Source: Escherichia coli
GTDB taxonomy: Bacteria; Pseudomonadota; Gammaproteobacteria; Enterobacterales; Enterobacteriaceae
Length of the DNA: 64,000 nt
Reading direction: 5' to 3' (one strand)
Assembly: GCF_022846255.1 (NCBI RefSeq)
Contig: NZ_AP025682.1
Below, piece after piece: positions 1 to 23,373 of this stretch (its first letter is position 1; every line of letters begins with the position of its first letter). The translations under genes and the position numbers were made by a program. The notes under the pieces are model-generated. The model saw only the letters and a program-made list of their open reading frames with translations, was not told the DNA's origin and searched no databases.

Positions 1-3000
1 ATTGCCAAAGGCCAGCATATACATCATTTACAGAATTTAATGATAATACTAAGCAGTATAATAATGCCTTTTGTCTCGGATTGAATAATACGTATGAGAA
101 ACAATCAAGCATCTGATGTAAGTTTGCCTTGCCAGTAGATTTACAAATAAAATCAAAAGGTAAAGAAAAACACATACCTGAATGTTCAAGTAACAGATTC
201 TGTGAGCTATAGCAGTAAGAACGTACTGCGTTCATGTGACTTATTTCTGGCGGATAAATAGCACTAATTAGTGTACGTTCCCCCGATTGAGCCAACATGG
301 CTCTGATAGCTAAGCGATAATAATCTGTTACCTTCTTCGGTTCATCTTCAGCCAGTTCAGTCCATGTAACGCATGGAGTACGTTTGGCATACTCCTGTGC
401 ATCACATGCCGGAATATAGTTAGTGCGCGGCAGATAGTCATCAGGCAGAGTTAGCAAGTCGAGGTTATCGTATGCTTTATTCGTGTCGCAGATCTCTTTG
501 GGTGTGTTATAGAAAGGATTGCCGACAAAGAAATGTGGACCAGATACAACCCATTGTGAAGGATTTTTTGGAAACTGTGTTTTTCGCAAAATTGTGCCGT
601 CATTTTGTGCATTAACTTCATTCCAATGCTGGGTTGCATAATAGCTGTTTGTAAAATCATTTAATCTCTTAGGTTGACGAGCAAACTTCTCAAGCACCGC
701 TACCAATTGTTTAGAATGTAATGCAGGAAGACGAGCTTGTAGGGCCGGCGTGTCGTCAGAATCATAGAGACGAGCAAATAGTCCTAATTTTATAAAATCA
801 ATAGTCACAATTCGATCTAAATGTCCCTGAAAATTCCATTTAGCTTTGGCCTTTCCATCAATCTCAGCTTCTTCTTTAATGCCTGGAACGTTACCATCAC
901 CTTTATGTTCGAAACATGCATCAATTGTTTGAGGAATAAACAAATTTACTATGTTCGAAAATACTGGCATTTGAGAAAATGGACCATAGATATTGATGCT
1001 GAATCTAGTGTGATTATCCACCTCAGCAAATAGTTTTATTTCATTCGCAAACTGAAAATGAGCCCTCAACCTCGGATAAACTGATGCACGCATCTGCCCA
1101 CCAGTAGGATCATCATAAATCCCTTCCGGGTGCAGGAGTCCTGTCACACCTCTTTCCGCCCCCAAACGCCACGCCTGCGGCAGGAAGCATTTATACAAAT
1201 TCGCTTTTTGACCTGCTAGTACCGGGTAGTTCTGCTGCGCATTGAGGAAGTTTTGCATCCCTTCACAGCCTTCATACTCGCTGCGCCAGGCCGCTTCCAG
1301 CGCCGGGATCTGGTTAAAGGTATCAATACGCAACGTGGCCAGCTTCGATGCACTCAGCTTACGCAGCACAAATTCCGGCTCGTAATCACCCAGCACGCCC
1401 GCTTCCTGCCATTCCACTTTCAGCCACGGCGGGTTTCCGAGCATCAGGTCAAAACCGCCGCGCTCGGCAAACAAGTCGCAGAACTCCAGATCCCAGTGGA
1501 AGAAACGGTACTGCTTTCTCAGGGCATCGACAATCGCCAGACGCGGCAAATGACGGAACAACACCTCGGTTTTCAGACGACCTGCGCCGGAAAACAGTGA
1601 AGACTCTTCTCGCAGCAGACCTTCTTCGGCAAACAGATCGCCGGTGGTGTGCTCCGCAACTTCAGTGACTTTTTCCGTGATTACAATCCCGTCGAGCAGG
1701 GTTTCAATCTCAAACAACCAGGTGCCGCGATCCGGTAGCTCATCGGCTTTGTCGATCGGCCAGAACCACAGCGCGCACCAGTAGTCCATTACCCAACGCA
1801 GCTTCTGGTAGGCACTGTTATCTTCAAGACGACCACTGAAGGTTTCATCTTTACTGCTCAGCGAAGAACGCGTCTGCTCGCTGTTTTCTGCCGGCCACAC
1901 CGGGTAGCTGTCGGCGGTTTTCAGACGTTCTGCTTTAAGTTGCTGGCGATAGGTGTTCCACAGAGCTTCCACCTTTTCGCTGATACGCTGCACATCAGCA
2001 ATCTCATGCCCGGCAAAGCTTTTAATAAACTCTTTGCGCCAGCTGTCCAGGGCTTTGAAGTCATCCGGATAACGCTGCTTAACAGTTTTATCGCTGTAGT
2101 TAGCCATACCGCCGTCGGGCAGCAGGAAGTGAAAAATCTGCGTCTCTTCACGCGGCGTGTTCATCGCCAGTTCAACCGGCTCGCTGTTAAGCCAGCTCGG
2201 ATCTTTGGCTTTTTTGTAGGTCAGTTCACTCTTGTTAAATACCTGACGGCGCGCGCCCACCAGCGAGTTACCGCAGTGCAGCTGGTAACCAAACCACGGT
2301 ACAAACGCATCGCCACTAATGGCGTTCAGCCACAGTGACACTTCCGCCAGTTCCACCGCCACCGGGTTTAAGTCCACGCCGAAAACGTTGTTGTCGGCAA
2401 TGTACATTTTCACCCGCTGTAACTCCTGGGTGTAACGATCCTGCGGAATACGGCGACCTTCCGCCTGCTGCTTATGGAACAGATACGCTTCCGCCAGCTG
2501 GTTGATGGCTTCGTTAAGGAACGCCGCGCTGCCCATCGCCGGTTCGCACACGGTGAGGTTTAAGATGGCATCAGCTTTGGCGTGCGGATCGGTAATCGGA
2601 TCAATTTGCTCTTTAAACAGCTCTTTCAGGGCATATTTAACCAAGGAGCGGGTCAGCACTTCCGGGGTGTAATAAGAGGCAGATTTCTCACGGTCGCGCC
2701 CGGCCATACGGTAGATAAAACTGCCTTTGCGGTGAATGCGCAGACTGCCGTCTTTCTCGTAGACCTTCTCGTCTTCGTGGTATTTGCCAATCTCATCCTT
2801 ACTGACGAAGTAACCCGTCTCCAGCTCGTTAAACTCTTCCCCGGCTTTCTTCACCTCGTAGAGATCTTCACTGGCGAAGAATCCGCGATAGGAAAGCAGC
2901 GCCTCATACACCGCACCTAACTGGTTGATACCCAACTGGCGATAAGAAATACGTCCGCGGCGGTTAAAGCGCCCTTTGCCCGGGCGGCTTAACGACATCG

Positions 3001-4345
3001 CCTGGATAATCTGTTGCAGGGTTTCGTTACGGAATACCACGCGGTTAAGAATGCGGGTGTTGTTGGCATCGAAAAGATGACTTTCCAGACGCGGGACGCT
3101 GAACTGATGACTATGGATGGTGATCCGGTCGCCGCTCTCCAGGTCACTCTGTATTTTCACGCCGCCGTTGTAGCCTTCGCGCACCAGTTTAAACAGCATA
3201 TTCAGACTGTCGTGGAAGTAGCGCCCGTTGCGATCTTCTTCGCTGGTCAGCGGGATCATCTCCAGATCGCGCAACGTTTCCAGGCTGTAACCTTGCAGAT
3301 AGGTTTTGGCGGTCATTGGCGCATAACCCAGCTCCGGGCGCGCTTCAATGTAGAACAGGAACAGCAGGCGGTACATGTAACGCAGACATTCGCGGCTCAG
3401 TTCATCCGGGTCCACCGCACGGTTACCGGTATAGTTTGCCAGGCCACGGTCGATCAGATAATGCATCGCTTCGTTGCCCAACAACTCTATGCTTTCGCGC
3501 AGGGCATATTTCAGATCTTCCGAAACACCAAACGCATGTTTGTGCGAATTGTCATCCAGCGAGTCAAGATATGGTGCCCCACTGCCCGGCAGCAGCGAAT
3601 CTTTATGTAGCAACACTGCCGTCGCTTTCAGCGTATCCGTTTCACGACGACTTAAAATCTCTTCAAAATCAAAACGTAGCAGACGGTTTTGCGCCCACTT
3701 AGTACGGTCCAACAACAATAGCTGACGGTTACCGAGCAGCAGCACAAAACGCGGCGGTTCATTTTGGGTGAAGACCGCCGTAGAGAGCAGATCCTGCCAG
3801 CTGCGATATTCACCGTTGGCTTTTTTGCGCAGGCTGTCGCGCTTATGTTTGTCGGTATCCGCCGGGAATTGCGCGGTCAGTAAGGAGAGCGCCAGCGGAT
3901 CCAGCGTTCCTTCTTCCTGATCGTGTGCTTCAACAATCCACAGCCACGGGCTACCGTCAGTGCTGTTGTAACGCGCCAGTACCGGCAGTGGTGTATCGTC
4001 ATCCAGCATTTGGATCTGCGGCGTAATTTCGTAGCCCAGCGCCTTTAACAATGGCTGCCAGCGATTACGTTGATCGGCCAGACGCTGCGGGATCTGACGC
4101 TGTTTTTCGTGCTCGGCAAGTTTGCGGAAAAACTCAGTCGCCAGACTGTTAAACTGGTTCCACGGAGCGCGGTATCCCGGCTCTACGTCTTTGCCCTGTT
4201 CACGAGCGGCACGCTCCGCTTCACGCGCGGCATTTTCCTGGGCTATCCAGGGTTCCAGCACATCGCGGATATCACTGGTGAAAACCTCACCCAAATAATG
4301 GTTAGAGTAAAATTCATTTTCGTTATTAATACCGACCAGCGCCAT
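1..4345 (-). CDS. Large N6-adenine DNA methyltransferase, PglX/DrmMI-like (partial: 3-prime end lies beyond window start)
   Basis: Minus-strand frame opens with ATG at 4345-4343 and has no stop before position 1, so it is absent from the ORF track (which lists only closed ORFs). In-frame motif I-like EPAMGSAAF (approx 2519-2545) and motif IV NPPW (1424-1435). Start lies 2 nt after the stop of the SNF2 gene. Plus-strand ORFs across this span are short and overlapping. Confidence 0.7.
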   Translation of the reverse strand, partial: MALVGINNENEFYSNHYLGEVFTSDIRDVLEPWIAQENAAREAERAAREQGKDVEPGYRAPWNQFNSLATEFFRKLAEHEKQRQIPQRLADQRNRWQPLLKALGYEITPQIQMLDDDTPLPVLARYNSTDGSPWLWIVEAHDQEEGTLDPLALSLLTAQFPADTDKHKRDSLRKKANGEYRSWQDLLSTAVFTQNEPPRFVLLLGNRQLLLLDRTKWAQNRLLRFDFEEILSRRETDTLKATAVLLHKDSLLPGSGAPYLDSLDDNSHKHAFGVSEDLKYALRESIELLGNEAMHYLIDRGLANYTGNRAVDPDELSRECLRYMYRLLFLFYIEARPELGYAPMTAKTYLQGYSLETLRDLEMIPLTSEEDRNGRYFHDSLNMLFKLVREGYNGGVKIQSDLESGDRITIHSHQFSVPRLESHLFDANNTRILNRVVFRNETLQQIIQAMSLSRPGKGRFNRRGRISYRQLGINQLGAVYEALLSYRGFFASEDLYEVKKAGEEFNELETGYFVSKDEIGKYHEDEKVYEKDGSLRIHRKGSFIYRMAGRDREKSASYYTPEVLTRSLVKYALKELFKEQIDPITDPHAKADAILNLTVCEPAMGSAAFLNEAINQLAEAYLFHKQQAEGRRIPQDRYTQELQRVKMYIADNNVFGVDLNPVAVELAEVSLWLNAISGDAFVPWFGYQLHCGNSLVGARRQVFNKSELTYKKAKDPSWLNSEPVELAMNTPREETQIFHFLLPDGGMANYSDKTVKQRYPDDFKALDSWRKEFIKSFAGHEIADVQRISEKVEALWNTYRQQLKAERLKTADSYPVWPAENSEQTRSSLSSKDETFSGRLEDNSAYQKLRWVMDYWCALWFWPIDKADELPDRGTWLFEIETLLDGIVITEKVTEVAEHTTGDLFAEEGLLREESSLFSGAGRLKTEVLFRHLPRLAIVDALRKQYRFFHWDLEFCDLFAERGGFDLMLGNPPWLKVEWQEAGVLGDYEPEFVLRKLSASKLATLRIDTFNQIPALEAAWRSEYEGCEGMQNFLNAQQNYPVLAGQKANLYKCFLPQAWRLGAERGVTGLLHPEGIYDDPTGGQMRASVYPRLRAHFQFANEIKLFAEVDNHTRFSINIYGPFSQMPVFSNIVNLFIPQTIDACFEHKGDGNVPGIKEEAEIDGKAKAKWNFQGHLDRIVTIDFIKLGLFARLYDSDDTPALQARLPALHSKQLVAVLEKFARQPKRLNDFTNSYYATQHWNEVNAQNDGTILRKTQFPKNPSQWVVSGPHFFVGNPFYNTPKEICDTNKAYDNLDLLTLPDDYLPRTNYIPACDAQEYAKRTPCVTWTELAEDEPKKVTDYYRLAIRAMLAQSGERTLISAIYPPEISHMNAVRSYCYSSQNLLLEHSGMCFSLPFDFICKSTGKANLHQMLDCFSYVLFNPRQKALLYCLVLSLNSVNDVYAGLWQ

Positions 4346-4347
4346 GA

Positions 4348-7206
4348 TTAACCCTCCGCTCCGGTGATAACAGCAATTACCTGAATGTAGGGTTCTTTTT
4401 CAGTCGTCATGGTGTCCTCAATCCATTCAATATAGCTGTCAAAATTGTGTTCTATTTCGCGTTGTCTCTGCTCTTTACGGCTCTGCTTAACTGACAATTG
4501 CTGTTTGTTATCGGCAAAATCCAGCTCAAGTTGGCTCAACTGCCGCCCACGCAAAACGTCCAGCTTTTGCAGATGCTCATTCAGTTGCTGGTTAATGTGC
4601 GTTTCAAACGCATTCCGATCATGGATGAATACCTCCCGGGCATGAGCAATAGCCGCTTCCAGTAAATCCTGCTGGCGCTGGTGATTACGATCTTTACCGC
4701 CGCTGTTAGTCAGCTTGTTACTCAACTGCGGATGACGTTGTAAAAACTCAGCAAATGGCTGACTGCCGATTAGCGATTCACGGTTAAAGCTCACCACTAT
4801 CCACGGGTTAACCATCGGATGTGATTTACGGTTCGGGAATAACCCGGAAAGAATGAAGTGATCTTCATCGGGTTCAAGCAAGTATGGCAGACGGATAACC
4901 GGTGCCTGATGACGACCAAAAGCCGAAGAGATTTTATCGTCCAGCCACTGCACTACCGGGTTGATTTGCCAGAGATACTGCACATCGGGCCAGGCATGTT
5001 GCTCACCGCGAGCGCGTGCAATCGCGTCGGTGATGACGGTTTTATCCTGACTTAAATAGAGCTGCCAGTTCTCCGGCGCGATTTCAGGCGGTAGCTGGTT
5101 GAAGCGGCGGCGTAACTCCTCCGGTGCCACCAGCGACAAGGTATTATCAGGCAAGGTTTCATACTGGATAGTTTGACCACTGGCTTTCAGGTAACCCAAT
5201 GCTCTTTCACAGTACGCCTGTTCGCTGGCAAACAAGCTGGTGTCTGTTTCGGTAACCATTGAGGCATCGCTGGAAACCGCACTGCATATTTCGCCAAACA
5301 GATCATGTTCGGCGCTTTCCGAGACGTTGCTGTTCAGCAGTTGATCAAACAGGCTGGCACCATCATCCTGCATCATGAACTCTGCAACCTGCTCTTCTTC
5401 CTCTTCCTGGGTAAATTTGCCGGTAAACTCCGAACTGTCCCCAATGTTCTTCTGCGCCTGTTCGTCTTTGTTGATCAACACTTCCAGTACGCGCATATCG
5501 CCATTGATCTGTGGTTCGCTGGCCTCGGTAAGCAGATAGCGGATTTGAGGCTGATGTTTTTGCCCATAGCGGTCAATACGCCCGTTACGTTGCTGGAATA
5601 CCATCAACGACCACGGAATATCAAAGTGAATCATTTTGTGGCTAAGGTGATGCAAGTTGATCCCTTCAGATGCCACATCCGAACAAACCAGAAGACGCAA
5701 CGGAGACTGCGTTTTACCAAAGGCTTCTACGGTTTCCATCAACACCGTATCGCCCTGATCGCCGCGCAGCGTGGCGATCTGGTCATCTTTCAATTTCAGA
5801 TCCGCTCGCAGTTGCTGTTCGAGGAACTCCAGCGTTTTAATGCTTTCGGTGAAGATCACCAGGCGATCTTCCGTGTTATTGGCTTTCCAGGCGAGGTCTT
5901 TTCGGATGGTGTCGAGCAGCAACTGGTATTTGCTAAACTGGCTGGCATCAATGTTATTCAGCGCCAACAGCAATGACTCCAGTTCGTTGATCTGGCTCTG
6001 GCTATTATGATCTTTACGGCTCTCAAGACGCTTCAGACGATTCGCCACTACGCTGGCACACGCCATCGGGCTGGAAAATAGCGCTTTTTCGAGGGTTATC
6101 TTGAACAGACGACCTTTGTTAGACTGGGCCTGTTCATCGTCATCATCACGGAACTGACTCTCAACCAGGCGACGGTATGCTTCTTCTTCGGCACCGGATG
6201 CCAGGCGAGTCAGTTTGACAATATTGCGCTCGGGGAACTCGCCAGACATCTGATCTTTCACGTCTTTTTTGAAGCGACGGACAACCAGATTTTTATCGGC
6301 AAAGTCGGCGTATTCATACTCTTTCGGGTTGGCGATCGCCGTCGGGTCAAGCATGTTCATCAGGCTGGCAAAACTTTCAGCTTTACCATCATGCGGCGTT
6401 GCTGAAAGCATAATCAGCGTATCGCTGCGCCCGGCGAGCAGCTTTGCCAGTTTACTGCGTAACGAACTGGTTCCACGTTCTGCGACGTTATGGGCCTCAT
6501 CAATGACAATAATATCCCACCAGGCATTTTCCAGATGGTGACGATATTCAATGTCTTGTTTCAGCGTATCGATGGAGATAATGGTCTTGTCAAAATAGTG
6601 AAACGGGTTGTGGTTGGTAGGGATGCGGTTACGCACCTTTTGTAAACCAGCAGAATCCAGGCGGGTCAATGGGATCGCAAAACGGCTCCAGAACTCCTTC
6701 TGGAATTGTGTCAGCATCGATTTAACCGCCAGAACCAGAATACGTTTTCCGCGCCCACGACGGATCAGTTCCGAAACCAGAATACCGGCTTCCAGCGTTT
6801 TACCCAGACCGACAGCGTCGGCAATGAGTATCCGCTGGCGCGGCTGTGCCAGCGCCATCCGCGTAGGGTCGAGCTGAAACGGCATGGAATCCATCGCCGC
6901 CAGATGACCAAAATGGACTTTACTGTCTGTCGGTACGCGTTGGCGTAACTGACTTTCGATATACAACTGCGCCGCCTGATAATTGGCGGATTCATCTTCC
7001 ACCAAATGCGTTTTTGCGGGATCCAGGATCTCTACTTTTTGTTCCAGTTTGGTCAGAAATAACCCTTCTTTACCGCGCACAAGCTCTGAAATACCATCGC
7101 AGGTCAGCAAATACCCACCATCACCACTGTCATCCGCCCGGCGAATACGCCATTCGGCATCACGAATAACCACCCGCATACCAGGTGCATAATTTTGCTT
7201 ATTCAT
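4348..7206 (-). CDS. SNF2/Rad54-family helicase-like ATPase (BrxHII/DrmD-like)
   Basis: 952-aa ORF; Walker A (ADAVGLGKT), DEAH box (VIDEAH), C-terminal helicase lobe motifs; tightly coupled to downstream methyltransferase. Confidence 0.8.
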   Translation of the reverse strand: MNKQNYAPGMRVVIRDAEWRIRRADDSGDGGYLLTCDGISELVRGKEGLFLTKLEQKVEILDPAKTHLVEDESANYQAAQLYIESQLRQRVPTDSKVHFGHLAAMDSMPFQLDPTRMALAQPRQRILIADAVGLGKTLEAGILVSELIRRGRGKRILVLAVKSMLTQFQKEFWSRFAIPLTRLDSAGLQKVRNRIPTNHNPFHYFDKTIISIDTLKQDIEYRHHLENAWWDIIVIDEAHNVAERGTSSLRSKLAKLLAGRSDTLIMLSATPHDGKAESFASLMNMLDPTAIANPKEYEYADFADKNLVVRRFKKDVKDQMSGEFPERNIVKLTRLASGAEEEAYRRLVESQFRDDDDEQAQSNKGRLFKITLEKALFSSPMACASVVANRLKRLESRKDHNSQSQINELESLLLALNNIDASQFSKYQLLLDTIRKDLAWKANNTEDRLVIFTESIKTLEFLEQQLRADLKLKDDQIATLRGDQGDTVLMETVEAFGKTQSPLRLLVCSDVASEGINLHHLSHKMIHFDIPWSLMVFQQRNGRIDRYGQKHQPQIRYLLTEASEPQINGDMRVLEVLINKDEQAQKNIGDSSEFTGKFTQEEEEEQVAEFMMQDDGASLFDQLLNSNVSESAEHDLFGEICSAVSSDASMVTETDTSLFASEQAYCERALGYLKASGQTIQYETLPDNTLSLVAPEELRRRFNQLPPEIAPENWQLYLSQDKTVITDAIARARGEQHAWPDVQYLWQINPVVQWLDDKISSAFGRHQAPVIRLPYLLEPDEDHFILSGLFPNRKSHPMVNPWIVVSFNRESLIGSQPFAEFLQRHPQLSNKLTNSGGKDRNHQRQQDLLEAAIAHAREVFIHDRNAFETHINQQLNEHLQKLDVLRGRQLSQLELDFADNKQQLSVKQSRKEQRQREIEHNFDSYIEWIEDTMTTEKEPYIQVIAVITGAEG

Positions 7207-7429
7207 CGGTTTTTCTGTCTATTTGGGGCAGTGGCGGTAACGTCATCCTGAAAAATGTGGCGCGGCACACTGCGATAAAAAAGAGGGCCTTAAAGATATC
7301 ATGAAGGCCCCCGGCAAAGTGACAAAATGGGAGGGAATGCGCATAATTTGCGCATGATTTTCAAACAAAAATTATTAAAAAGTGAGCTGGGTCAACTCCC
7401 CTGGAAGATATCCCCAGGGGAGCAATTAT

Positions 7430-10400
7430 TTATCCAGCGATAATATAACTCCTAAGGTCATTACCCGGGGCAACAGCTCGCGCTCGCGTGTTTGCCAGCA
7501 GTTCAACTTGCTGCGGTACTCGCAGGGAAAAATCAAAGAAGGTATCTTCAATACAGCGCCAGTAGCTAAGCCCCATGTCGAGCAGGACATAATGCTGACT
7601 GCCATCGCTGAAGGTGACTGTCAGTTCTCGTCCATGCTCCGTACTCTGGTTATCCCCCGTTAACCAGCTAATTGCTCCCGGCCACGCTGGCCCCAGATAT
7701 CCTTCTTCAAGTAAAGTGGTCACAACCTGCTGACGATCTTCCTCATTAAGCCACGCGTTATAGAGAGCGTCGTGTTGGCGAGAGTTGTAATCCAATTTTT
7801 TGACGCAAACAGTGAGGCTGGCGCGTTCCGCCATTCCCTGTCCAACCAGCTCGGTTAAGATTTCACCTAACAAACGCGCCGTGAATGGGCTATTAAGATA
7901 ACGATCGCTGTACTCAACATGCGTTATCTCTTTGTGGCGGGTAAATGCCTGCTTCCAGCCAGCGTGCTGTTGCGTGACTAACGACCAGAAACGCGAACCA
8001 AAACCTTCCAGCGGCCCGTCCAGTTGCTCGCAGAGGTTGATGCGCACCGCCCCGGTGGGTAAGGCGGGCAGTAAATCTTCTGCACTTAAGGTCTGACCCG
8101 AGAAGGTTTTTCCGGACGTTCCTTTAAGTGTCACTACTGGTGAGGACGCACTTTGTCCCCATAATTCACCAGGTGCAACGGTAGCGCTGTCGTCTGCGGC
8201 CCACTGTTGGCTTTGCCCTTCGCGAGTCACCTGCGCAAGCCAGCGTCCCTTTCCTTGCATGAGTTGCGCAGTGGCAATGGATTTCACTTGTAAGCGTCCT
8301 CCCGGCATCGCCGCCAACGCGGAAAGCTGATGTCTGGAGCTATCTGTTAAGTTTGCCAACGGCGTGGCCACCAGCAACTCAACATGCCCACCGGAGGAGG
8401 CAAACTGGAGCAACTCTTTAAATAATGGCCATTGGGCAAAATCCCACTGTTCCTGCGGCCCCGCAAGAACCAGCGAGCAGGAGTCATAAATCTCGCTGTT
8501 CAGGCATTGCGCAATACGTAAACTCAGCGGGTTAGTTTCAACCCGGCTACCATCGCCGAAGTACTGATATTCTGGCGCGAGGTTAAGTCGCTGCAACCGT
8601 ACATTGGTAAGCAGGGTTAATGCATGGTGACGATCTAATCTGTTGACATAATGCTGACTGTCGTAGCTGAGCAAGCAGTGGTGACAGAATTTATCGCAAC
8701 TGCAATCGAGCAATTTTCTGGCGTAATTAAAGACATCAGCCCAATGGTCGATCAATTGCACTGCATAACCTGCACCACCCGCATTATTGTCGTAAATGAA
8801 GATGGAATATCCGGTATAGCCATTGATATCGCGCGCTTGCTGCGTCGTCACGCCCAGCTCAGTATTTTCGATACCCAATTTATGCGCTAACCCTTCACGC
8901 AAAGCGACCGCAAGGGATCGCGCGGCAACCTCATCACGGATCAACAGGCCATTATCATCATTGAGTTGCAGCTCAACCATATCTGTACGACTGCTATACC
9001 CCAACCAAAGATCTTTATGCACATGACCGTGGCACAATTTATTGCTCCCCTGACGATCGTTACTGCCCCCTCGCAACAGGTAATGCGTATTTTCCCTCTC
9101 TGGGTTCTTAAGATTTTCAGGGGTACGCTGGGGTTGATTTTGAGATTCTGCCCGACCACATGAGAGGCAAATTGCGTAGCCGTGCCCAAATTCCCCTTCA
9201 CTGAAGTGGAACAATTCCCCACTATGGCTAAAACGGTAACGTCCTAACCCAGCATCGGGTAAAGAAACCCACACCGAAGACGGTACAAGAACACGTGGAT
9301 CTTTCCAGGGAAGTTGTGCAGGCATGGATACATCATTATGCGCCTGATAACGGATATCTGTCGCAAAACCAACAGGCTGTAAATAACGCTTCACATCAAG
9401 TTGCTGTATATCCGCTTTGCAGTGACTACATTCGACAGGACGGGTAGTACTGGTTGCCCCCGCACCACATTTACGACAATGCCAGAACCACGGAATATGA
9501 TGATCGCCTGACAGCTCCTGCCCGCTGGCAAGTACCTTGCCAAGCATAATGCCCGAGGAACGATATACTTTTCCGCCCAATACCACATCTGCACCTGGAG
9601 CATACTCGCGTAATGCTGTAGGCAAATCACGGCTGGGCAATTTTTCAATACGACGAGAAAAGCTTTCTCCCCCTTCATTAGGGTCAGCCTGAGTAGCTTT
9701 TATTGCGCGACGTTTTTCCAGCTCATCTGCCGTCAGATAATTGAAATTGACGACGCCAACCGGGAAACCATGCCCCGGCAGGAACGCTTCACTAATGAGT
9801 TTAGAAAACAGATATGCACCGCGATAATCACGAAGCTGATAAGCGATGGCTTTACCTGCTGGCGTTTCTTCCCACGCGCTGTTATCCGCCTTCAACGCTT
9901 CGATATTTTCCAACAGTATCGCAAGTTGGCTTCTCCAGCGGATATCAACCTGCTGCATCATTGCTTGTGTGCGGGTCAAGAGCTGGGTTGCCGTCAATGA
10001 CATCAGGACGGTTCCCTGAGTAAGGCGTTTAAGTTTATCCGCCAGCTGATCGGCCTGGTTATTTAACCAATGGAGAAAACGAAGACACTGGCTCTCATCA
10101 CCTTCAAAGAACCATTTGCAACTCAGTTTTGTCGCATCAGGAACTTCAGCTCGTAAAAACAGACCTAAAACCAGGGCATTAACATGTCGTTGAACAATAC
10201 TGCTGCTCCCAAAACGAACCCGTGGCGCACTGGCAGTAGTGTTGAACGCCCAGAGGGGGGCTTTGAATACCTCCATTCCATGCGCCGTGTTTTTACATAA
10301 CGTAATGGCAGCAGATGCACTCTCTCCACGTCGACCCGCGCGGCCTGCACGCTGCAAATAATTTGCCGGAGCTGGAGGAACGTTGTTCATTGCCACCAAA

Positions 10401-13400
10401 CTCATACCACCAATGTCCACCCCCATCTCCATGGTCGTGGAGCAGTTCAGCACATTAACTTTGCCTGACTTAAATTGTTTTTCATTAAACTGGTTCTGCT
10501 CAGGCGTTCTCTGCGCAGAGTGTTCCTCCAGACGATACCAGCTATCTTTCAGGGCCAGTCGGTCGCTGCGAGTAGACCATAATCCTTCCTCGCGGGCATG
10601 TTGAATCAGCGCATTACTTTCCAGCCACTCCAGACGTTCTTCTCGGGCGATTTCTCCACCACCAGACAAACGCCAGTGACGTACAGGAAGCTCAGGCATT
10701 TCAATCAACACTGCTTTTTCAGGTGCAATTTCTTTGCTACCCGGCAAATACGGAGAGTATCCCAGTAACGTGACGTCTAACGCACGTCGAGTATAGGGGC
10801 AACGCCACACTTGCTTTGGACTGTAAAATTCAGCTTGTTGTTTAATATCCAGCTGATAACCCGACTCAAACTGACGTAAGCAGGGTCGAATTGCATCCCA
10901 GACCTCAATCATTAAGTGGTTAACTAACGATTTCCAGTGAGCCTGCTCAGGTTGTATTGCCGGAAAGACTGCAATTAATAGCTTAATGACCCGGTTATAA
11001 TGGCGATCGCGTATTTGTGGCCAAAGTTGATCACGTTTCTGCCCTTTGTTTTTTTTATCTGGACCCTGGAGCATTTTTACCGGGAAACGAGCCCCCATCC
11101 AGCGAGGGTATTGCTCGTTTTCGTAAAAAACGGCACTGTTTTCACGTATAAAGAAATCAAGAGTAATCTTCAATAAATTACGCCATTCCGCTAATTGCTT
11201 ATCGGGATCGGGTAATAATGTCTTCCAGTCCTGCGGGCAGGTTGTAACTTTATCAATAAATGGATAGTGAATGGCTACCAGACCCAGACTTTCGAGGGTC
11301 CAGGCATTTTTAGGGCGGCGACCAAACTCACTGTATAAACAAAAATCTGCAAACTGTTGTTTAGTAAGATCAAGCCCAGACAATTCTTTAAAACTGCCTC
11401 TCATTCTATCGGCAAGGTCCACACTGCCAACCAGCTGTTCAGACAGTGTTTGCCATGACATGGTTTTCTTCTGCTGATTGCCAGAGTTAGCCTGGAGTAT
11501 TTGCATCGCTTCAGCATGATCCGGGCTTAAGGAACTCACCATCGGCTCGATAATTTTAAGTGCCTGAATGTCCGCCGGGCTAAGCTCTTCATTAGCAACC
11601 ATCGCTTTTTTCAGCGCGTCAATAGAGTTTTTTAAAGGAAGGATAGAAAACTGGGTAATAAAACTCTCTAACAATGCGCAGTGTGCCGGGCTGAGCTTTG
11701 CTGATGGCTCATTAATATTGGCCAACTCCTGGTAACAAAGAGCTCGCAACGTCGCTTTATCGGCATCCTGCTGTAAGCGGGCAGAAATGCGGGCAGTGCC
11801 CTGACGTGAATCCGTAAAGGTGAGCAGACGTCGACCATTAAACGGTCCTAACTGCTCTTCTCTTGTCTGCGGTAATGGTGAAAACTCCAGCAGAGTAGGA
11901 ATAATTTCATTTAAAAAAAAGGGCGCGCCAAGTCGAAGCGGACGGAATAAAGGATTATTTTTTCGTTGGGTGTCACCACAGCAAACACAAGCAAAGGAAT
12001 TATTACGTCCCTCACCTCGAGATTCCGGTCTTAACAGGTTTATTTCATAGTGCTTTTGCGCTTCACTATCAATTTTCCCCGCCGTCGTTTCTTCCAGAGA
12101 AATGATATATTTTTCACCATCGATCGCAATCAGACGATCAAATTGAGAGTTATTGTCTAATTCGTCGTTGTCTTCATCTTCAGAATAAACATCTACATCA
12201 AGAGCAAATTCATCCACTTCGGCAGCGGCGGGTTGCGCTACCAACCAGTTCGTTCCATCACCGCGCACCTCCTCTTTGGCAGACAAATAAGCTGAACCAC
12301 ACCCGGAGCAACGTAAAACTTCAAATACCGGCGCACCACAGTCACAATATTGGCGCTGCTCAAACCATACCTGACCAAATGGCCAGTCACTCTGATTTAA
12401 TTCATGCGCTTTATGTGAGCATTGTTTGTTTGAACATGCCCATAGACCCGCCAGTGTTCTGATAAACCCATGCATACGTAATGGCGTAAAAGCCAGTTCA
12501 CCTTCTCGCGATCTCGCCATTAGGTCGAGGAGTTGCAGTAACTCACGGTGATTAATATCTGGCCAGGTTCTTCTGGCAACATTGAGCAACTCACTCAAAC
12601 GTACTGCCTGCCGTCCGGGATGAGTTAACGCCTGACGCAATTGCTGGGCCACACGGTAATGACAAAGCTGTTGGTAAAGATCCTGAGGGCTCAAAGATTT
12701 AAGAGAAGTTAAAGATGTGGGATATTCATGACGAATCAGCGACTCCGATACCCGCGGTATTTGTCGATAGCCGCGAACCACTTTGACATCACGTTCTGTA
12801 ACGCCCGCAAGATCAGCGACAAATTTAGCAAGCTCCTTATTACCTTCAGGAGAGTCTTCACCAATAGTGGCAGAGGTCGCGATAATCTGCACAGGTTTAT
12901 CTGTGCCAGGTCCAACATTGAAAGCCTGCATAACACGACGTAAAAGCAGCGCTAACTCAGCAGCCTGAGAACCAATATAACTATGGGCTTCATCCAGGAC
13001 GATATACTTTAACATCCCCTGAGACTTTTCGATGATTGGGGCATCTTTACGACGAATCAGCATATATTCCAGCATGGTGGTATTCGTCACCATGATGGAA
13101 GGTGGTGCTTCGTAAATGGCTTCCCGACTCAAAGCTTGTTCAGGTACTTTCAACTGATCTTCCTGAACTTCGTATTTGGTATGCCGGGTTTCGCCATTAT
13201 ATAGCGCGAAGCGTATTTTCCCCTTAAATCCGCGCGTCCATTCGCGAAGCCGCTCCTGTTGGCTGTTAATTAATGCATTTAACGGATACAAGAAAATAGC
13301 TTGTGTCCCTGTTAGTGACTGACGGGTCGATTTTTGCTGACGAATAAGATCTTCCAGAACCGGTACCATAAAGCATTCTGTTTTCCCGGATCCCGTACCG

Positions 13401-13753
13401 CTGCTCACTAACAAGGATTTTTTGTCTTCCAGAATCGTTCGCCACGCCGTAAGTTGATGACGAAATGGCACCGGCGCTTTGCTCAATGCATCAACCAGCG
13501 GGCTGGAAATTAGCTTGTCCCGCAAATCCTCCATTGTTTCATCCGCAGGCATCCAGCCGAACGTGCTTTCGAATACCGGGTCTGCAAGCAGTGACCCCTC
13601 CTGACCGGGAGGCTGGAAATATTGTGATTCCAGATAATGAGTCAACGACTTGCTCCGCAATGCCAACTGACTTACCACCGACCTCACCGCGCGCTGATGA
13701 AGCTGATTTAGAAGTGGCGCATAATGCAGTTGCTGAACGTCCATCAATGACAT
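7430..13753 (-). CDS. druE: Giant DEAH-box helicase with multiple Cys4 zinc-ribbon clusters (DUF1998-like); DruE-like
   Basis: 2107-aa ORF; Walker A SSGTGSGKTE, DEAH box (VLDEAH), helicase motif VI QRAGRAGRRG about 1000 residues downstream; CxxC...CxxC clusters (CSNKQC...CDCG...CSGCG; HCRKCG...CSHCK; CLSCG; CSCDKFCHHC). Size and domain content match the hallmark Druantia helicase; DrmA/DrmB-type fusion not excluded. Confidence 0.55.
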   Translation of the reverse strand: MSLMDVQQLHYAPLLNQLHQRAVRSVVSQLALRSKSLTHYLESQYFQPPGQEGSLLADPVFESTFGWMPADETMEDLRDKLISSPLVDALSKAPVPFRHQLTAWRTILEDKKSLLVSSGTGSGKTECFMVPVLEDLIRQQKSTRQSLTGTQAIFLYPLNALINSQQERLREWTRGFKGKIRFALYNGETRHTKYEVQEDQLKVPEQALSREAIYEAPPSIMVTNTTMLEYMLIRRKDAPIIEKSQGMLKYIVLDEAHSYIGSQAAELALLLRRVMQAFNVGPGTDKPVQIIATSATIGEDSPEGNKELAKFVADLAGVTERDVKVVRGYRQIPRVSESLIRHEYPTSLTSLKSLSPQDLYQQLCHYRVAQQLRQALTHPGRQAVRLSELLNVARRTWPDINHRELLQLLDLMARSREGELAFTPLRMHGFIRTLAGLWACSNKQCSHKAHELNQSDWPFGQVWFEQRQYCDCGAPVFEVLRCSGCGSAYLSAKEEVRGDGTNWLVAQPAAAEVDEFALDVDVYSEDEDNDELDNNSQFDRLIAIDGEKYIISLEETTAGKIDSEAQKHYEINLLRPESRGEGRNNSFACVCCGDTQRKNNPLFRPLRLGAPFFLNEIIPTLLEFSPLPQTREEQLGPFNGRRLLTFTDSRQGTARISARLQQDADKATLRALCYQELANINEPSAKLSPAHCALLESFITQFSILPLKNSIDALKKAMVANEELSPADIQALKIIEPMVSSLSPDHAEAMQILQANSGNQQKKTMSWQTLSEQLVGSVDLADRMRGSFKELSGLDLTKQQFADFCLYSEFGRRPKNAWTLESLGLVAIHYPFIDKVTTCPQDWKTLLPDPDKQLAEWRNLLKITLDFFIRENSAVFYENEQYPRWMGARFPVKMLQGPDKKNKGQKRDQLWPQIRDRHYNRVIKLLIAVFPAIQPEQAHWKSLVNHLMIEVWDAIRPCLRQFESGYQLDIKQQAEFYSPKQVWRCPYTRRALDVTLLGYSPYLPGSKEIAPEKAVLIEMPELPVRHWRLSGGGEIAREERLEWLESNALIQHAREEGLWSTRSDRLALKDSWYRLEEHSAQRTPEQNQFNEKQFKSGKVNVLNCSTTMEMGVDIGGMSLVAMNNVPPAPANYLQRAGRAGRRGESASAAITLCKNTAHGMEVFKAPLWAFNTTASAPRVRFGSSSIVQRHVNALVLGLFLRAEVPDATKLSCKWFFEGDESQCLRFLHWLNNQADQLADKLKRLTQGTVLMSLTATQLLTRTQAMMQQVDIRWRSQLAILLENIEALKADNSAWEETPAGKAIAYQLRDYRGAYLFSKLISEAFLPGHGFPVGVVNFNYLTADELEKRRAIKATQADPNEGGESFSRRIEKLPSRDLPTALREYAPGADVVLGGKVYRSSGIMLGKVLASGQELSGDHHIPWFWHCRKCGAGATSTTRPVECSHCKADIQQLDVKRYLQPVGFATDIRYQAHNDVSMPAQLPWKDPRVLVPSSVWVSLPDAGLGRYRFSHSGELFHFSEGEFGHGYAICLSCGRAESQNQPQRTPENLKNPERENTHYLLRGGSNDRQGSNKLCHGHVHKDLWLGYSSRTDMVELQLNDDNGLLIRDEVAARSLAVALREGLAHKLGIENTELGVTTQQARDINGYTGYSIFIYDNNAGGAGYAVQLIDHWADVFNYARKLLDCSCDKFCHHCLLSYDSQHYVNRLDRHHALTLLTNVRLQRLNLAPEYQYFGDGSRVETNPLSLRIAQCLNSEIYDSCSLVLAGPQEQWDFAQWPLFKELLQFASSGGHVELLVATPLANLTDSSRHQLSALAAMPGGRLQVKSIATAQLMQGKGRWLAQVTREGQSQQWAADDSATVAPGELWGQSASSPVVTLKGTSGKTFSGQTLSAEDLLPALPTGAVRINLCEQLDGPLEGFGSRFWSLVTQQHAGWKQAFTRHKEITHVEYSDRYLNSPFTARLLGEILTELVGQGMAERASLTVCVKKLDYNSRQHDALYNAWLNEEDRQQVVTTLLEEGYLGPAWPGAISWLTGDNQSTEHGRELTVTFSDGSQHYVLLDMGLSYWRCIEDTFFDFSLRVPQQVELLANTRARAVAPGNDLRSYIIAG

Positions 13754-16700
13754 ACTCCTGCTTGTTCAAAATAATATTGATAGATTACCCCTAATTGCTG
13801 CGGGGCTTGCTGATAGTGGAATTCAAAAAGCGCAGACAGTTGATGTATCAAGTTATTATCTTTTTGGGTTAACAGCGCTGCGACTAACATCAAATTAAAA
13901 CGTTTTTCAAGCCGTGAGTGATATTTATCTTCAATCCAAAGCTTATTAAAAACAGATTTTAACTCTGGAGTAATAGCACTAGACCAAAGTTCTTTAGGGA
14001 AGATACTGATACGCCCAAAGCTGTCGGGGTTCCTTAATAGCATCTGTTTAGCTTCATTAAACTGCTCACGACTAACAGTTGGCAAGACATTACAACCGGC
14101 TGGTAGGAGTTCGCCATATGTAAGTAACATATTCGCAATGGGAGCCAGACGACGATCGATATGTGCACGATGGTTCATAAAAGCAATAAAGGGTTGCAAT
14201 ATATGTAATGCTAATGTTTTATCGTTAATCTGTTTTTCCAGATAAGCCCAACACTTTTGAAAAACATCTTTCCAGATTGAAACGGGAATCCATCCCCATG
14301 AAAAGGGTAATTCTTCCTGTATATCATAAATCGTATCGCTATCACCAGAAAGACATGATGATATTAACAACTGAACAACTACGCGGTAATTACTCGAAAT
14401 ACCTCTGAACAAATCCAGATCCAGCAAGGATAAGCCATTATTCATTTTGTATTTCTTAATATACTCCGTTAATAAACAGCAATAATTTTGCAAAGGATTG
14501 TTATCTATTTCAAAAATTAGCTCATTAAAATATTTTTTTCGCTGTTCGGAATCCGCTTCGCATAGAGCATTAAGTAATAAATCATTTGTCTGTAATACAG
14601 GTAGCCCCCATTTAATTACTGGTGCAATGCGAGCTGTACCATCAAGTTTCCCCACAATTAACCATGGGCTATCCTGAACATTCAGAGCTGAAAGATCATA
14701 AGCAAATTCATCTTTTTTTAGCAACGATATGTGTAAGCCAGGATCCTTAAGAGAAATAGCATCAACAACCAGCTCGTCTATTCTATTTGCAGGAAAAACA
14801 ACAGAATTTTTTATATCAACCAGTAACCCTTGATCGTGTTCAATAAAACTACCATCGTAGCGTTTAATACTGAGTGTTGCTTTATCCTTTCCAAATCTGT
14901 CAGAGTAAAAATCAACACATAATGTACTATTGCTGTTCCATGCACATGCCAGCATAGCATTTAGCAAATTATAGTTCTCATAAAGTGAAATTTGTTTTAA
15001 TTTGTCATTGCATCCTGATAAAAGAGGAAGGTCGGCATGTAAATAACGGAATTTTTCAGCTACTGGATTTTCATCCAACAACTCGATATTAAGATATCCT
15101 CTTCCAGCACAAGATATGGTTAACAACTCAGCATCTATTCCATGCAAATGCGCTATAGATGCCACACCATCAAAATGAACAGAACCATCATGAGTTACAA
15201 ATCGGCCACCGCTAACCGGCTTAGGTAATAATAGTTTAAGATTAGAACCATCTTTCCAGGAGACCCGTAAATCAACGGTATTTTCCAGCATCTCCGATGA
15301 ATTATAATAAATAGCACACTCGTTTTGTGAATAATCGGACTTAAGTGTTACTTTTTCATTATTTGAATATTTGTCAATTCTAGTATCCGTTATACCAGAA
15401 AGCATTATGATGCCTTGCTGAGCACTCTCAGGTATAATATTAATATCGAAGTCTGTTGGTAAAACTACAACTTTACCGCTAAATAAAACCTCATCATTAA
15501 CTATTCGTCTGACTTCTATCTGTCCTTTTGGCATTTCTGATGCGACAGAATACCAGGCATTGTTACCTGAACGAATGGAACGCCAAAAAAGTTCTTTCTC
15601 CGGTACAATGCCATATTGCAGATCCTTTTTCCAACCGATCTTCGGCCAGGCTCGATGGACAGGATAATCCGATTTAACCAGTTCAACTTCTGTCGATTTA
15701 ATATAATATTCAATCGCAGAATCATAAAGTTGCTGGGTGCGAATTGTACAAACTGCACCATCATGTAAAACAACGCTAAATACTCCACTTATTTTAGTTA
15801 AGCTGCGTTCACTGTTTTTCAGCAACCTTGGGATATCAAACTCACCTTCTCCACTAATATCTAAATGGCTATTTTTCGGTAGCGAAATAAACAGAGCATT
15901 TAGCCTGGAACTCACAGACCCCATACCGACAAGTTTTAGCTGCGATTCACTCTCATTCATCGCTTCAAAAACCCAGGGGAGTTCTTCAGTAAGTTCATAA
16001 CCGCCTTTTGGAATTGTGTGGCCTAACAGAATTGGACCTTCATGAAGCGACAACGAGATTTCGGCCATTGCATCTGCACCAGAGAGCTTTTGCATCGCAA
16101 TAGGTAATAACTCGACCCGCCAATCTTGCTGCTCATAACGGCTTAGCATTGCCAACCTTGCCCCGCCATTTCTCCATTTTCCTGAAATGATGAGTCGGGT
16201 CTGCTCCGGCTGAATATTGCATTCAAACAAAGAGGTTAACTGTTCTGTACGCATTATGGCCGGGAATCGGAACCGGGCATCACAATACCAACTGTCATCA
16301 ACATCGACCCAGATTCTTTCAACCTGAAGACTACTTGCACTGCGTATTTCAGAAGATTGAGAAAGTAATCGCCTTACAATCTCTGCAGCATTCGCTTCGG
16401 GGAGAACGAGTGGAAGTTGAAGATGCCAGTCTGGAGAGAGCTTACGTAATGCAGAAACGGGATCACTGCTTTGAGGTGGATGCTCACTAAGTAATCGGCA
16501 GAGAGTCTCGCAGAATTCACCGGCTATTTCATAGACCAGTTCGTTTTGCATTGTGACAGGAATCGTATCGCCTAATTCTTGTGCAATTTTAGCGGCAGGA
16601 TATTGAGATGCTTGCCCACGAAGCGCCTGATATATCCTTCTGAAATAGGTAATCAAATAACCGCTCTCATTTTCAATCATGCGGATAGGTAAACCACCTT

Positions 16701-17103
16701 CACAAGCCAGTGTATGCAGATAACCCGAAGCTTGCCCCAGGTTTCTTATCTTTCTTTTCCAGTAGCGAATGCCATCATTAACCAGCTTCTGTTGATGAAC
16801 ATACGGAACTTTCCAGTCAATAGAATCTAAAATTGTGTCCCATTTAGGGTGTCCGACCGTATGAGTCCGGCGGATAAACTCTGCGGCATATATGCTAAAT
16901 AGAACATCGCTATAGGAAATGAATATCGTTCTTGGATAACTACGGGGGGCATATGTACGCAGTAGTTCTGCCAAACTTTCGTACTCTGTATCAGTACAAC
17001 GGTAAGCATATAACGCCCGTCCATCAGCTCCGGATAATGAACGGCGACTAAAAAACATGTTAAGCCATTGCAAAAGTGGGTTAACTGGAGTTTTCACAAG
17101 CAA
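13744..17103 (-). CDS. druH: 1119-aa protein without recognisable motifs, translationally coupled to the giant helicase (DruH-like position)
   Basis: Long uninterrupted ORF; stop overlaps helicase start by 10 nt; no catalytic motif recognised by eye; position and size fit the DruH partner of type III Druantia, but the assignment is by context only. Confidence 0.45.
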   Translation of the reverse strand: MLVKTPVNPLLQWLNMFFSRRSLSGADGRALYAYRCTDTEYESLAELLRTYAPRSYPRTIFISYSDVLFSIYAAEFIRRTHTVGHPKWDTILDSIDWKVPYVHQQKLVNDGIRYWKRKIRNLGQASGYLHTLACEGGLPIRMIENESGYLITYFRRIYQALRGQASQYPAAKIAQELGDTIPVTMQNELVYEIAGEFCETLCRLLSEHPPQSSDPVSALRKLSPDWHLQLPLVLPEANAAEIVRRLLSQSSEIRSASSLQVERIWVDVDDSWYCDARFRFPAIMRTEQLTSLFECNIQPEQTRLIISGKWRNGGARLAMLSRYEQQDWRVELLPIAMQKLSGADAMAEISLSLHEGPILLGHTIPKGGYELTEELPWVFEAMNESESQLKLVGMGSVSSRLNALFISLPKNSHLDISGEGEFDIPRLLKNSERSLTKISGVFSVVLHDGAVCTIRTQQLYDSAIEYYIKSTEVELVKSDYPVHRAWPKIGWKKDLQYGIVPEKELFWRSIRSGNNAWYSVASEMPKGQIEVRRIVNDEVLFSGKVVVLPTDFDINIIPESAQQGIIMLSGITDTRIDKYSNNEKVTLKSDYSQNECAIYYNSSEMLENTVDLRVSWKDGSNLKLLLPKPVSGGRFVTHDGSVHFDGVASIAHLHGIDAELLTISCAGRGYLNIELLDENPVAEKFRYLHADLPLLSGCNDKLKQISLYENYNLLNAMLACAWNSNSTLCVDFYSDRFGKDKATLSIKRYDGSFIEHDQGLLVDIKNSVVFPANRIDELVVDAISLKDPGLHISLLKKDEFAYDLSALNVQDSPWLIVGKLDGTARIAPVIKWGLPVLQTNDLLLNALCEADSEQRKKYFNELIFEIDNNPLQNYCCLLTEYIKKYKMNNGLSLLDLDLFRGISSNYRVVVQLLISSCLSGDSDTIYDIQEELPFSWGWIPVSIWKDVFQKCWAYLEKQINDKTLALHILQPFIAFMNHRAHIDRRLAPIANMLLTYGELLPAGCNVLPTVSREQFNEAKQMLLRNPDSFGRISIFPKELWSSAITPELKSVFNKLWIEDKYHSRLEKRFNLMLVAALLTQKDNNLIHQLSALFEFHYQQAPQQLGVIYQYYFEQAGVCH

Positions 17104-18967: not shown

Positions 18968-18973
18968 TCGATC

Positions 18974-19681: not shown

Positions 19682-19684
19682 GAG

Positions 19685-23263: not shown

Positions 23264-23373
23264 GGTTGATAATACCGCGCCCCTATAATCTTGCCATCTC
23301 GTGCATTGAGATGTTAAAAGCTACAAATGTTCTCCCTATTTTTCAATGTAGACATTTATAGCAATATCAAAAT

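Follow-up and report, generated by a model that had tools for sequence, protein, structure and literature searches.

Described systems closest to the locus

The closest described systems, Druantia of type III and ARMADA of type II, are both known from Escherichia coli, and the main literature sources on the two are preprints of 2025-26. ARMADA II was described from E. coli NCTC 12900, EDL933 and ATCC 8739 (PMC12458937; doi 10.1101/2025.09.22.677730). Its defence requires all four arm genes (Bell et al. 2025, PMC12458937) and also depends on the ATPase motifs in ArmA and ArmC, on Walker A in ArmD and on NPPW in ArmB; it is direct and non-abortive, ARMADA II cloned alone protects, and single deletions of the arm genes, armB included, cause no growth defect. 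Following a logic like that of BREX and DISARM, ArmB would mark host DNA by means of an exchangeable recognition region and, together with the translocase ArmA, would also be required for restriction, the YprA helicase ArmC would attack unmarked phage DNA through its C-terminal Vsr-type nuclease, and ArmD, in which a UvrD-type helicase is joined to a RelE-like domain, would assist; both the methylation of the host by ArmB and the nuclease activity of ArmC are predicted roles. Druantia III (III-A) is represented by the PDB entries 9tu7-9tud (2026 preprints), whose proteins are 98-99% identical to those of the locus presented here. DruE acts as a 3'-to-5' helicase-nuclease engaging single-stranded parts of phage replication intermediates, a defence for which host methylation is unnecessary. 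The pair druHE alone (pDruHE) protects both E. coli MG1655, a strain in which no ARMADA is reported, and a methylation-free strain, and is non-toxic there (preprint). Synergy between ARMADA II and Druantia III was shown in ATCC 8739 and EDL933 (2025-26 preprints); speculatively, the two might reinforce each other via shared DNA intermediates.

Gene content of the leuX island region

The window, i.e. the whole stretch of 64,000 nucleotides that was analyzed, is the leuX island of E. coli, named OI-172 in O157:H7. Four very large minus-strand genes occupy its first 17 kb, and an ORF check placed all four at the coordinates reported in the initial annotation. These 17 kb very probably hold Druantia III and ARMADA II, two distinct anti-phage systems that run in the same direction within the leuX/OI-172 defence island. 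Assignment of the first two genes to the DruH-DruE pair of type III Druantia, already proposed in the initial annotation, is borne out by PADLOC, NCBIfam and PDB matches. The gene druH (13744..17103, minus strand, TTG start) encodes a DruH of 1119 residues belonging to the STY4851/ECs_5259/YjiT family, which matches the PADLOC DruH3 profile over its full length (2538 bits), NCBIfam NF038336 with 970 bits vs. a cut-off of 150, and the 'DruH' of PDB entry 9tud with 2528 bits; 1097 of its 1119 residues (98%) are identical in the DruH of O157:H7. It lies directly upstream of druE (7430..13753, minus strand), the ends of the two genes overlapping; RefSeq places the start of druE three codons later than the ORF call, and in the RefSeq models this start overlaps the druH stop by 1 nt. 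DruE is a YprA-family DEAH helicase of 2107 residues (PADLOC DruE3, 2179 bits, full length; PDB 9tu7, 4861 bits) with GSGKT at residue 121, DEAH at residue 254, and Pfam matches to Helicase_C and the MrfA Zn-binding (DUF1998/MZB) domain, residues 1615–1694 (nt 8672-8911); it shares 2082 of 2104 residues (99%) with the O157:H7 protein. Neither a Pfam match to a PLD domain nor an H-x-K motif within the last 457 residues was found in DruE. The cryo-EM structure of a near-identical (99%) E. coli DruE describes two C-terminal domains of the PLD superfamily, PLDi and PLDa, so that the earlier statement that the window lacks a PLD nuclease holds for a separate gene, none being present in the window or its relatives, and may not hold at the level of domains. 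Overlap of druH with druE and a divergent Zorya II neighbour are common to the described Druantia III of E. coli and to the window, and no substantive difference between the two was found.

The Zorya type II genes zorA2, zorB2 and zorE (17258..20788, plus strand; PADLOC ZorA2 1001, ZorB2 346 and ZorE2 585 bits) constitute the third component of this conserved array, beyond positions 1-17103, in agreement with the RefSeq annotation of the relatives. Promoter-like hexamers on both strands of the region between druH and zorA2 (17104..17257) make it a putative divergent promoter region. Further downstream, the genes of 1478, 298 and 488 aa at 24.5-32.4 kb were considered as DptFGH and rejected, since they correspond to Wadjet type III, JetDCBA. 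An Rfam scan gave a tRNA as the sole match.

On the other side of druE, a spacer of 223 nt (7207..7429, minus strand) separates this gene from armA. It contains a 12-bp hairpin immediately past the druE stop (about 7395-7423), promoter-like hexamers (7325-7298) and another hairpin with U6 after it (about 7275-7312), and its folding energy of -66.3 kcal/mol corresponds to z = -3.9 vs. shuffled sequences. These elements suggest that the spacer marks the boundary between two operons, and in the literature the native promoter was included when either operon was cloned.

The initial annotation had recognized in the last two genes the module of an SNF2 helicase and an adenine methyltransferase common to class 1 DISARM and BREX, a description that holds as far as it goes: the two are armA and armB, the first two of the four ARMADA type II genes. 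ArmA (4348..7206, minus strand; 952 residues) is an SNF2/RapA-like helicase resembling BrxHII and DrmD, with SNF2-rel_dom and Helicase_C domains in Pfam, the Walker A lysine K136 and the DEAH aspartate D236 in place, and RapA as nearest solved structure; all of its 952 residues (100%) are identical to WP_001041505.1 of O157:H7. The gene armB (1..4345, minus strand), which encodes an N6-adenine DNA methyltransferase, starts with an ATG 2 nt past the armA stop and stays open from position 4345 to the window start, so that 1448 of the 1644 residues found in relatives are visible and the C-terminal 196 are missing. Motif I, EPAMGSAAF (G605, nt 2531-2533), and motif IV, NPPW (residues 971–974 with N971, nt 1424-1435), are both present, G605 and N971 carrying the same residue numbers as those mutated by Bell et al.

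Because the window ends inside armB, we infer armC and armD of this genome from relatives of 97.7-99.6% DNA identity, and in every close relative (L001, L002, L086) armC and then armD follow armB, completing ARMADA type II. The possibility of partners beyond position 1, foreseen in the initial annotation, thus turned out to be real in all close relatives, immediately past the edge. Their ArmC (2113 residues) is a YprA-type helicase with Helicase_C and MZB domains in Pfam and a DruE-like PADLOC match of 348 bits. ArmC and ArmD of the relatives share 99.4% and 99.6% identity, respectively, with their O157:H7 counterparts; in the case of ArmC the protein compared is WP_000937974.1, encoded by the gene after armB in O157:H7 strain TR01 and chosen by Bell et al. 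2025 (PMC12458937) as ARMADA type II representative. ArmD (704 residues) matches GajB in PADLOC (123 bits) and UvrD-helicase and UvrD_C in Pfam, which did not detect a RelE domain; it took structure prediction to see one. In the AlphaFold model of residues 1–240 (pLDDT 69; core 70-89) the N-terminus appears to fold like RelE/YoeB (Foldseek best probability 1.00, TM 0.64-0.75, target-normalised), and nearly all of the top 50 Foldseek matches are toxins of RelE/YoeB/YafQ/ParE type or proteins with such a domain. Compared with the described ARMADA II, genes, order, island and catalytic residue numbers are the same, and the ArmB allele is the sole difference, armC and armD of this genome lying off-window.

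Assortment of the defence modules

Among the 5426 complete E. coli genomes surveyed, DruHE is found in 505, ArmA with ArmB in 521 and ArmC with ArmD in 525, these being marginal counts per gene pair, and the joint 17.5-kb stretch in 500. The Zorya-Druantia-ARMADA block moves as one, both on islands and on IncFIB plasmids. Across species, 80 species-level ArmA loci were compared by tblastn and ORF maps. ArmB follows ArmA in 62 of 63 loci, and ArmC lies no more than about 5 kb away in 22 of 47, while four extended loci have it further downstream; wherever the sequence extends far enough ArmB is followed by ArmC, contig ends being reached in L089 and L092 before any ArmC could be visible. DruE or DruHE stands directly upstream of ArmA in 8 of 45 loci, ArmAB being without DruHE in the other 37, and DruHE occurs without ArmAB on plasmids of Methylocystis and Pseudomonas luteola. 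Apparent DruHE-ArmAB variants without ArmC (L013 and L015 from Vibrio/Enterovibrio, and the MAG L025) were rejected after extension of the loci, which revealed ArmC, and ArmD where visible, further downstream behind nested genes; extension of L018/L087 and L058/L095 likewise placed ArmC further downstream.

In other Gammaproteobacteria, where Zorya, Druantia and ARMADA genes are interleaved, complete operons of further defence systems (Zorya I or II, GmrSD-like, Tiamat-like) are inserted between armB and armC. In the marine representatives L088, L090 and L095 it is the whole zorABE operon that is found there, with or without DruHE in front, and a nested locus of Aliidiomarina indica reads armA-armB-gmrSD-zorABE-armC-armD; the portion of the ARMADA paper's text that was searched says nothing of Zorya being nested or embedded in ARMADA. 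Moreover, ZorE and ArmC have in common a C-terminal motif of 57 residues (40% identity, pairwise E-value 2e-8). The nested zorABE, the ZorE-ArmC motif and the mobility of the block are hints that Zorya II and Druantia III, together with ARMADA II, could be the modules of a single, integrated defence unit, in which either ArmA-ArmB as epigenetic module, or DNA intermediates of ArmC/ArmD, would feed into the nucleases DruE and ZorE; we regard such a unit as unlikely.

The initial annotation described a hybrid Druantia/DISARM-like arrangement and raised the question of DruHE and the SNF2-methyltransferase pair being a single system, the latter pair supplying self/non-self marking to the former. 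The genes are indeed adjacent and co-directional, the block is kept in the 500 E. coli genomes and on plasmids, DruE and ArmC are paralogues among the YprA helicases, and the synergy is experimentally established. Nevertheless, the protection conferred by druHE alone on MG1655 and on a methylation-free strain, without toxicity, contradicts a role of the methyltransferase in self-marking for Druantia; ARMADA defence is lost on deletion of armC or armD in spite of the presence of druHE, and cloned ARMADA II needs no DruHE to protect. Likewise, a spacer with hairpins lies between the operons, the two pairs assort independently in the survey, and the loci that had been candidates for DruHE with ArmAB only carry ArmC, and ArmD where visible. 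The hybrid reading, very improbable in our view, is largely refuted already, and what stands of the functional link that it proposed is the synergy, not a shared system. We favour DruHE and ArmAB as parts of adjacent cooperating systems, each active alone. Against this reading, the two are not fully independent, considering their synergy, their joint movement on islands and IncFIB plasmids, and the interleaving of the three systems in other Gammaproteobacteria.

The methyltransferase ArmB and its relation to known enzymes

Pfam gives weak matches of ArmB to Eco57I, MmeI_Mtase and N6_Mtase and found no nuclease in it, and a sequence search returned no solved homologue. Structure prediction was needed to see that the N-terminal 545 residues, as modelled, would adopt a restriction-endonuclease-like fold followed by a helical domain, an arrangement also seen in HsdM, PglX and DrdV. 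In PADLOC, the protein matches REase_MTase_IIG (PDLC03614) over nearly the whole profile, with 794 bits for the fragment and 954 for the full length. ArmB could on these grounds be taken for a self-contained Type IIG/IIL restriction-modification enzyme, with ArmA as accessory and independent of both neighbours, the more so as conservation across 40 homologues is at least 90% at D149, D213, K216 and E229. However, these residues do not form a canonical PD-(D/E)xK motif and none could be assigned, the Foldseek E-values are weak (0.006-0.07), and ArmC follows ArmB wherever the sequence suffices. The requirement for all four arm genes argues against action of ArmB as a single protein, and, furthermore, the armB deletion strain grows normally and the NPPW mutant loses defence without the host being killed. 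We regard a self-contained enzyme as very improbable. The resemblance to Type IIG/IIL enzymes (MmeI, DrdV, BpuSI) lies in the order of restriction-endonuclease-like fold, helical domain, gamma-class methyltransferase and recognition domains; in contrast to them, ArmB is about 600 residues longer and cannot act alone because ArmA, ArmC and ArmD are needed.

That the methyltransferase and the SNF2 protein are members of a standard BREX or class 1 DISARM locus with its remaining genes off-window has a negligible probability, for although ArmA has DrmD as best PADLOC match (333 bits, followed by BrxHII with 201) and ArmB matches DrmMI (192 bits), the relatives continue past armB with ArmC, ArmD and the island-flank genes of the nan region, no PglZ, BrxC, DrmA/DrmB pair or DrmC is present among their annotated neighbours, ArmA stays below the curated DrmD cut-off (NCBIfam NF038317, 349.7 bits vs. 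610), and ArmB reaches 25.7 and 30.4 bits with the BREX-1 and BREX-6 PglX models of NCBIfam vs. cut-offs of 500 and 900. Nor did the window ORFs scanned with PADLOC include PglZ or BrxC, as the initial annotation had already remarked.

ARMADA II as an adjacent, separate system nevertheless resembles both families. With class 1 DISARM (DrmD, DrmMI, DrmA, DrmB, DrmC) it has in common an SNF2 helicase and a large N6-adenine methyltransferase, followed by a helicase bearing DUF1998, and the two probably obey the same epigenetic self/non-self logic. Whereas DISARM has separate DrmA and DrmB (DUF1998) genes, which were not encountered here, helicase and DUF1998 are fused in the single ArmC protein of the relatives, which is nearer to DruE than to DrmA (348 vs. 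49 bits); ARMADA II has, according to the literature, the Vsr-type nuclease in place of a PLD gene, and it includes ArmD as an extra UvrD/RelE protein. As in BREX, a large methyltransferase with a variable recognition region is required for defence itself and has an SNF2-type helicase as partner, and the modelled N-terminal fold of ArmB is similar to that of Salmonella PglX. On the other hand, PglZ, BrxC, BrxA, BrxB and BrxL are missing from ARMADA II, and sequence similarity to PglX is confined to the catalytic core (22 bits with the PADLOC profile, up to about 30 with those of NCBIfam).

The hypervariable target-recognition region of ArmB comprises residues ~1075–1470, divided into two variable sub-blocks (~1075–1300 and ~1300–1470); the part of the region that is visible corresponds to nt 1-1123. 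Over the 1448 residues seen, ArmB is 93% identical to that of the described ARMADA II, with the differences mostly in residues ~1000–1448, a stretch in which two other E. coli alleles form a mosaic. Judging from these alignments, the armB allele of the window is a recombinant of two other alleles within a hypervariable block of ~400 residues. This is in keeping with exchangeable recognition modules and leads to the prediction of a distinct methylation motif.

The locus, its gene content and E. coli distribution, and the independence and synergy of the two systems were already described in 2025-26, and as a discovery the finding adds little to what is published on them. For work on ARMADA, the recombinant armB allele and the tolerance of ARMADA II for operons between armB and armC may be of use.

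Gene content and island setting

In the region 1–17103, Druantia III lies beside the first two of the four ARMADA II genes, as part of the published Zorya-Druantia-ARMADA array. The finding holds up and is already known, the key papers being preprints. Four large co-directional open reading frames on the minus strand are present exactly where the initial annotation had placed them: druH (13744–17103, 1119 aa), druE (7430–13753, 2107 aa), armA, encoding an SNF2 protein (4348–7206, 952 aa), and armB, encoding a methyltransferase (1–4345, ATG at 4345), which is open to the window start with 1448 aa visible. The stop of druH overlaps the start of druE, 2 nt separate the armA stop from the armB start, and a spacer of 223 nt (7207–7429) lies between druE and armA. 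This 17.5-kb stretch is matched in 553 of 5426 complete E. coli genomes, with at least 80% of it covered in 500 of the 5426, at identities of 95–99.6%.

The assignment of the first two genes to type III Druantia is borne out by PADLOC (DruH3, 2538 bits; DruE3, 2179 bits), by NCBIfam (DruH in the YjiT family, 970 bits for a cut-off of 150) and by matches to PDB entries 9tud ('DruH', 2528 bits) and 9tu7 (DruE, 4861 bits). DruE carries GSGKT and DEAH motifs, Helicase_C and an MrfA Zn-binding domain. Experiments on near-identical proteins describe it as a 3'-to-5' helicase that bears PLD domains and engages phage intermediates containing ssDNA, and point to DruH as the likely sensor. In some genomes the NCBI pipeline labels DruE a 'motility-regulating DEAH-box RNA helicase'. 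According to a 2026 preprint, DNA but no RNA is bound and deleting druE leaves motility unchanged; the name is probably misleading.

ArmA finds its best PADLOC match in DrmD (333 bits), remains under the curated NCBI cut-off for that family (350 vs. 610 bits), has RapA as closest solved structure and is identical to the O157:H7 protein over 952/952 residues. Three relatives (EC42405, CFSAN061771 and O157:H7 TR01) were fetched for the sequence past the window start. Each of them encodes a methyltransferase of 1644 aa, followed by a DEAD/DEAH helicase of 2113 aa (ArmC; PADLOC DruE-like matches of 348 bits, Pfam Helicase_C and MZB) and a UvrD-type helicase of 704 aa (ArmD; PADLOC GajB 123 bits, Pfam UvrD domains), whose N-terminus is predicted to adopt a RelE/YoeB-type fold; beyond these lie island-flank genes of the nan region. 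The partners upstream of position 1 for which the initial annotation had allowed are thus found in the relatives, from which we infer armC and armD in the present genome, and the absence of PglZ and BrxC noted in the window extends to the neighbours in these three genomes, which include no PLD gene either. The O157:H7 ArmC (WP_000937974.1) is the type II representative of Bell et al. (PMC12458937), who reported a strict gene order, a direct, non-abortive defence by ARMADA II that needs all four arm genes, and a requirement for ArmA K136/D236, ArmB N971, ArmC K110/D234 and ArmD K266; all of these residues are present with unchanged numbering.

The tRNA-Leu(CAA) at 53030–53114 with its adjoining P4-type integrase identifies the source region as the leuX island, O-island 172 in O157:H7. 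A NanM/kelch gene fragment lies within 20999–24372, and the same part of the island encodes a short HNH endonuclease (21615–22193), a restriction endonuclease binding phosphorothioated DNA (22334–23263; NCBIfam 438 bits) and a PDDEXK protein that corresponds to PADLOC candidate PDC-S11 (23374–24372). These are followed by a type III Wadjet (jetD, jetC, jetB, jetA; 24499–32371, minus strand), a divergent BrxR/WYL regulator (32547–33440) and a truncated P4-type integrase (33949–34818), the boundary of an older island. A second element of low GC content (31–40%) occupies about 35–52.8 kb, with a type II methyltransferase and restriction endonuclease (35686–39673), a relaxase-like gene (42185–43372), two tyrosine recombinases (47385–49905) and, adjoining the tRNA gene, an intact integrase (51593–52840); for several of its open reading frames, family searches gave no match.

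One system or two

The initial annotation had described the four genes as a hybrid Druantia/DISARM-like arrangement. This is not supported, since each system protects when cloned alone: druHE in MG1655, also in a methylation-free strain and without toxicity (2026 preprint), and ARMADA II according to Bell et al. (PMC12458937). In EDL933, deletion of any one arm gene abolishes ARMADA defence with druHE intact. A functional link does find support in the synergy published for Druantia III with ARMADA II against many phages, as a relation between two systems and not as a single hybrid.

The genomic surveys agree with the experiments. Among the 5426 complete E. coli genomes, DruHE, ArmAB and ArmCD are found in 505, 521 and 525, respectively. 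Li et al. (doi 10.1101/2025.09.22.677730) reported ARMADA II in 426 of 3792 genomes. Scanning an ArmA alignment against one genome per species yielded 80 loci, in which ArmA is followed by ArmB in 62 of 63 cases and preceded by DruE in only 8 of 45. Close ArmABC loci without DruHE occur in Enterobacter wuhouensis, Mangrovibacter and Aeromonas veronii, and DruHE occurs without ArmAB on plasmids of Methylocystis and Pseudomonas luteola. Three loci (L013, L015, L025) that appeared to carry DruH-DruE-ArmA-ArmB without ArmC were rejected as hybrids, as extension revealed ArmC behind inserted genes, together with ArmD where the contig was long enough; the same held for others that at first seemed to pass from ArmA-ArmB to something other than ArmC. 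Therefore, no true hybrid restricted to Druantia and the SNF2-methyltransferase pair was found among the extended ArmA loci.

The druE-armA spacer is consistent with separate transcription units: its predicted folding is unusually stable (z = -3.9), with two strong hairpins, one of 12 bp directly past the druE stop and one with U6 behind it about 70 nt ahead of the armA start, overlapped by promoter-like hexamers. The DruHE-ArmABC block was also observed, flanked by IS1/IS3 elements, on IncFIB plasmids of K. pneumoniae (L083) and E. coli (L096), the latter including Zorya II; one of the two is a conjugative qnrS1 plasmid.

The variable methyltransferase ArmB

The best PADLOC match of ArmB is the 'Type IIG' model (794 bits), followed by DrmMI (192 bits), PglX reaching only 22 bits; NCBIfam PglX models give 26–30 bits for cut-offs of 500–900. 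The 'Type IIG' label is explained by the N-terminus, as the model of residues 1–545 (window 2711–4345; pLDDT 84) displays a restriction-endonuclease-like fold and then a helical domain of the HsdM/PglX/DrdV type. Across 40 homologues, conservation of D149, D213, K216 and E229 is at least 90%, and no canonical PD-(D/E)xK nuclease motif is evident in this segment.

Comparison of 12 full-length orthologues reveals that ArmB is conserved except for a block with two minima at residues ~1075–1470, where identity falls to 0.38–0.73 within E. coli; Li et al. found variation concentrated in armB. The block, visible in the window at 1–1123 (residues ~1075–1448), follows the NPPW motif, an arrangement shared with Type IIG enzymes and PglX, and its variation is that expected of exchangeable target-recognition modules. 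The window allele resembles CFSAN061771 up to about residue 1300 and EC42405 afterwards and is therefore a recombinant; over its first 1.5 kb, the window shares only 87.7% identity with the best full-length E. coli match, and the allele probably has a distinct recognition specificity.

Single arm deletions in EDL933, armB among them, did not slow growth. The genetics of ARMADA II fit a logic like that of BREX, with restriction itself depending on the methyltransferase and no harm arising from its loss. ArmB may mark host DNA and ArmC may cleave; more speculatively, and by analogy with Druantia-Zorya work, shared DNA intermediates could underlie ARMADA II's synergy with Druantia III.

Zorya operons nested within ARMADA II

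In three loci an entire Zorya II operon lies inside ARMADA II, between armB and armC, with all genes co-directional, and two of the three have DruHE in front. In Enterovibrio sp. (L088, 1–24998), armB is followed by a UvrD-like gene, two small open reading frames, zorABE and an ArmC truncated at the end of the locus; in a gammaproteobacterial MAG (L090, 1–21902) and in Aliidiomarina indica (L095, 1–21695; without DruHE), a GmrSD-like or GmrSD gene and zorABE precede ArmC and ArmD. ZorA occurs soon after ArmB in five more loci. Other genes found after armB are a 1638-aa sacsin/NOV_C protein (PADLOC TmtA) in Bowmanella pacifica (L087, 10001–14917), followed by ArmC and ArmD, and a type I Zorya (ZorA, ZorB, an EH_Signature protein and an SNF2 protein) in a Marinobacterium MAG (L089, 7866–15638).

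A 57-residue C-terminal motif is common to ZorE (residues 279–335, window 20519–20689) and ArmC of CFSAN061771 (L002, residues ~2022–2077), with 40% identity and a pairwise E-value of 2e-8; the same segment of the ZorE profile matches the C-termini of TmtA-like and GmrSD-like proteins adjoining ArmB in other species. We found no mention of Zorya nested inside ARMADA in the ARMADA paper (PMC12458937), and this nesting is noteworthy in itself.
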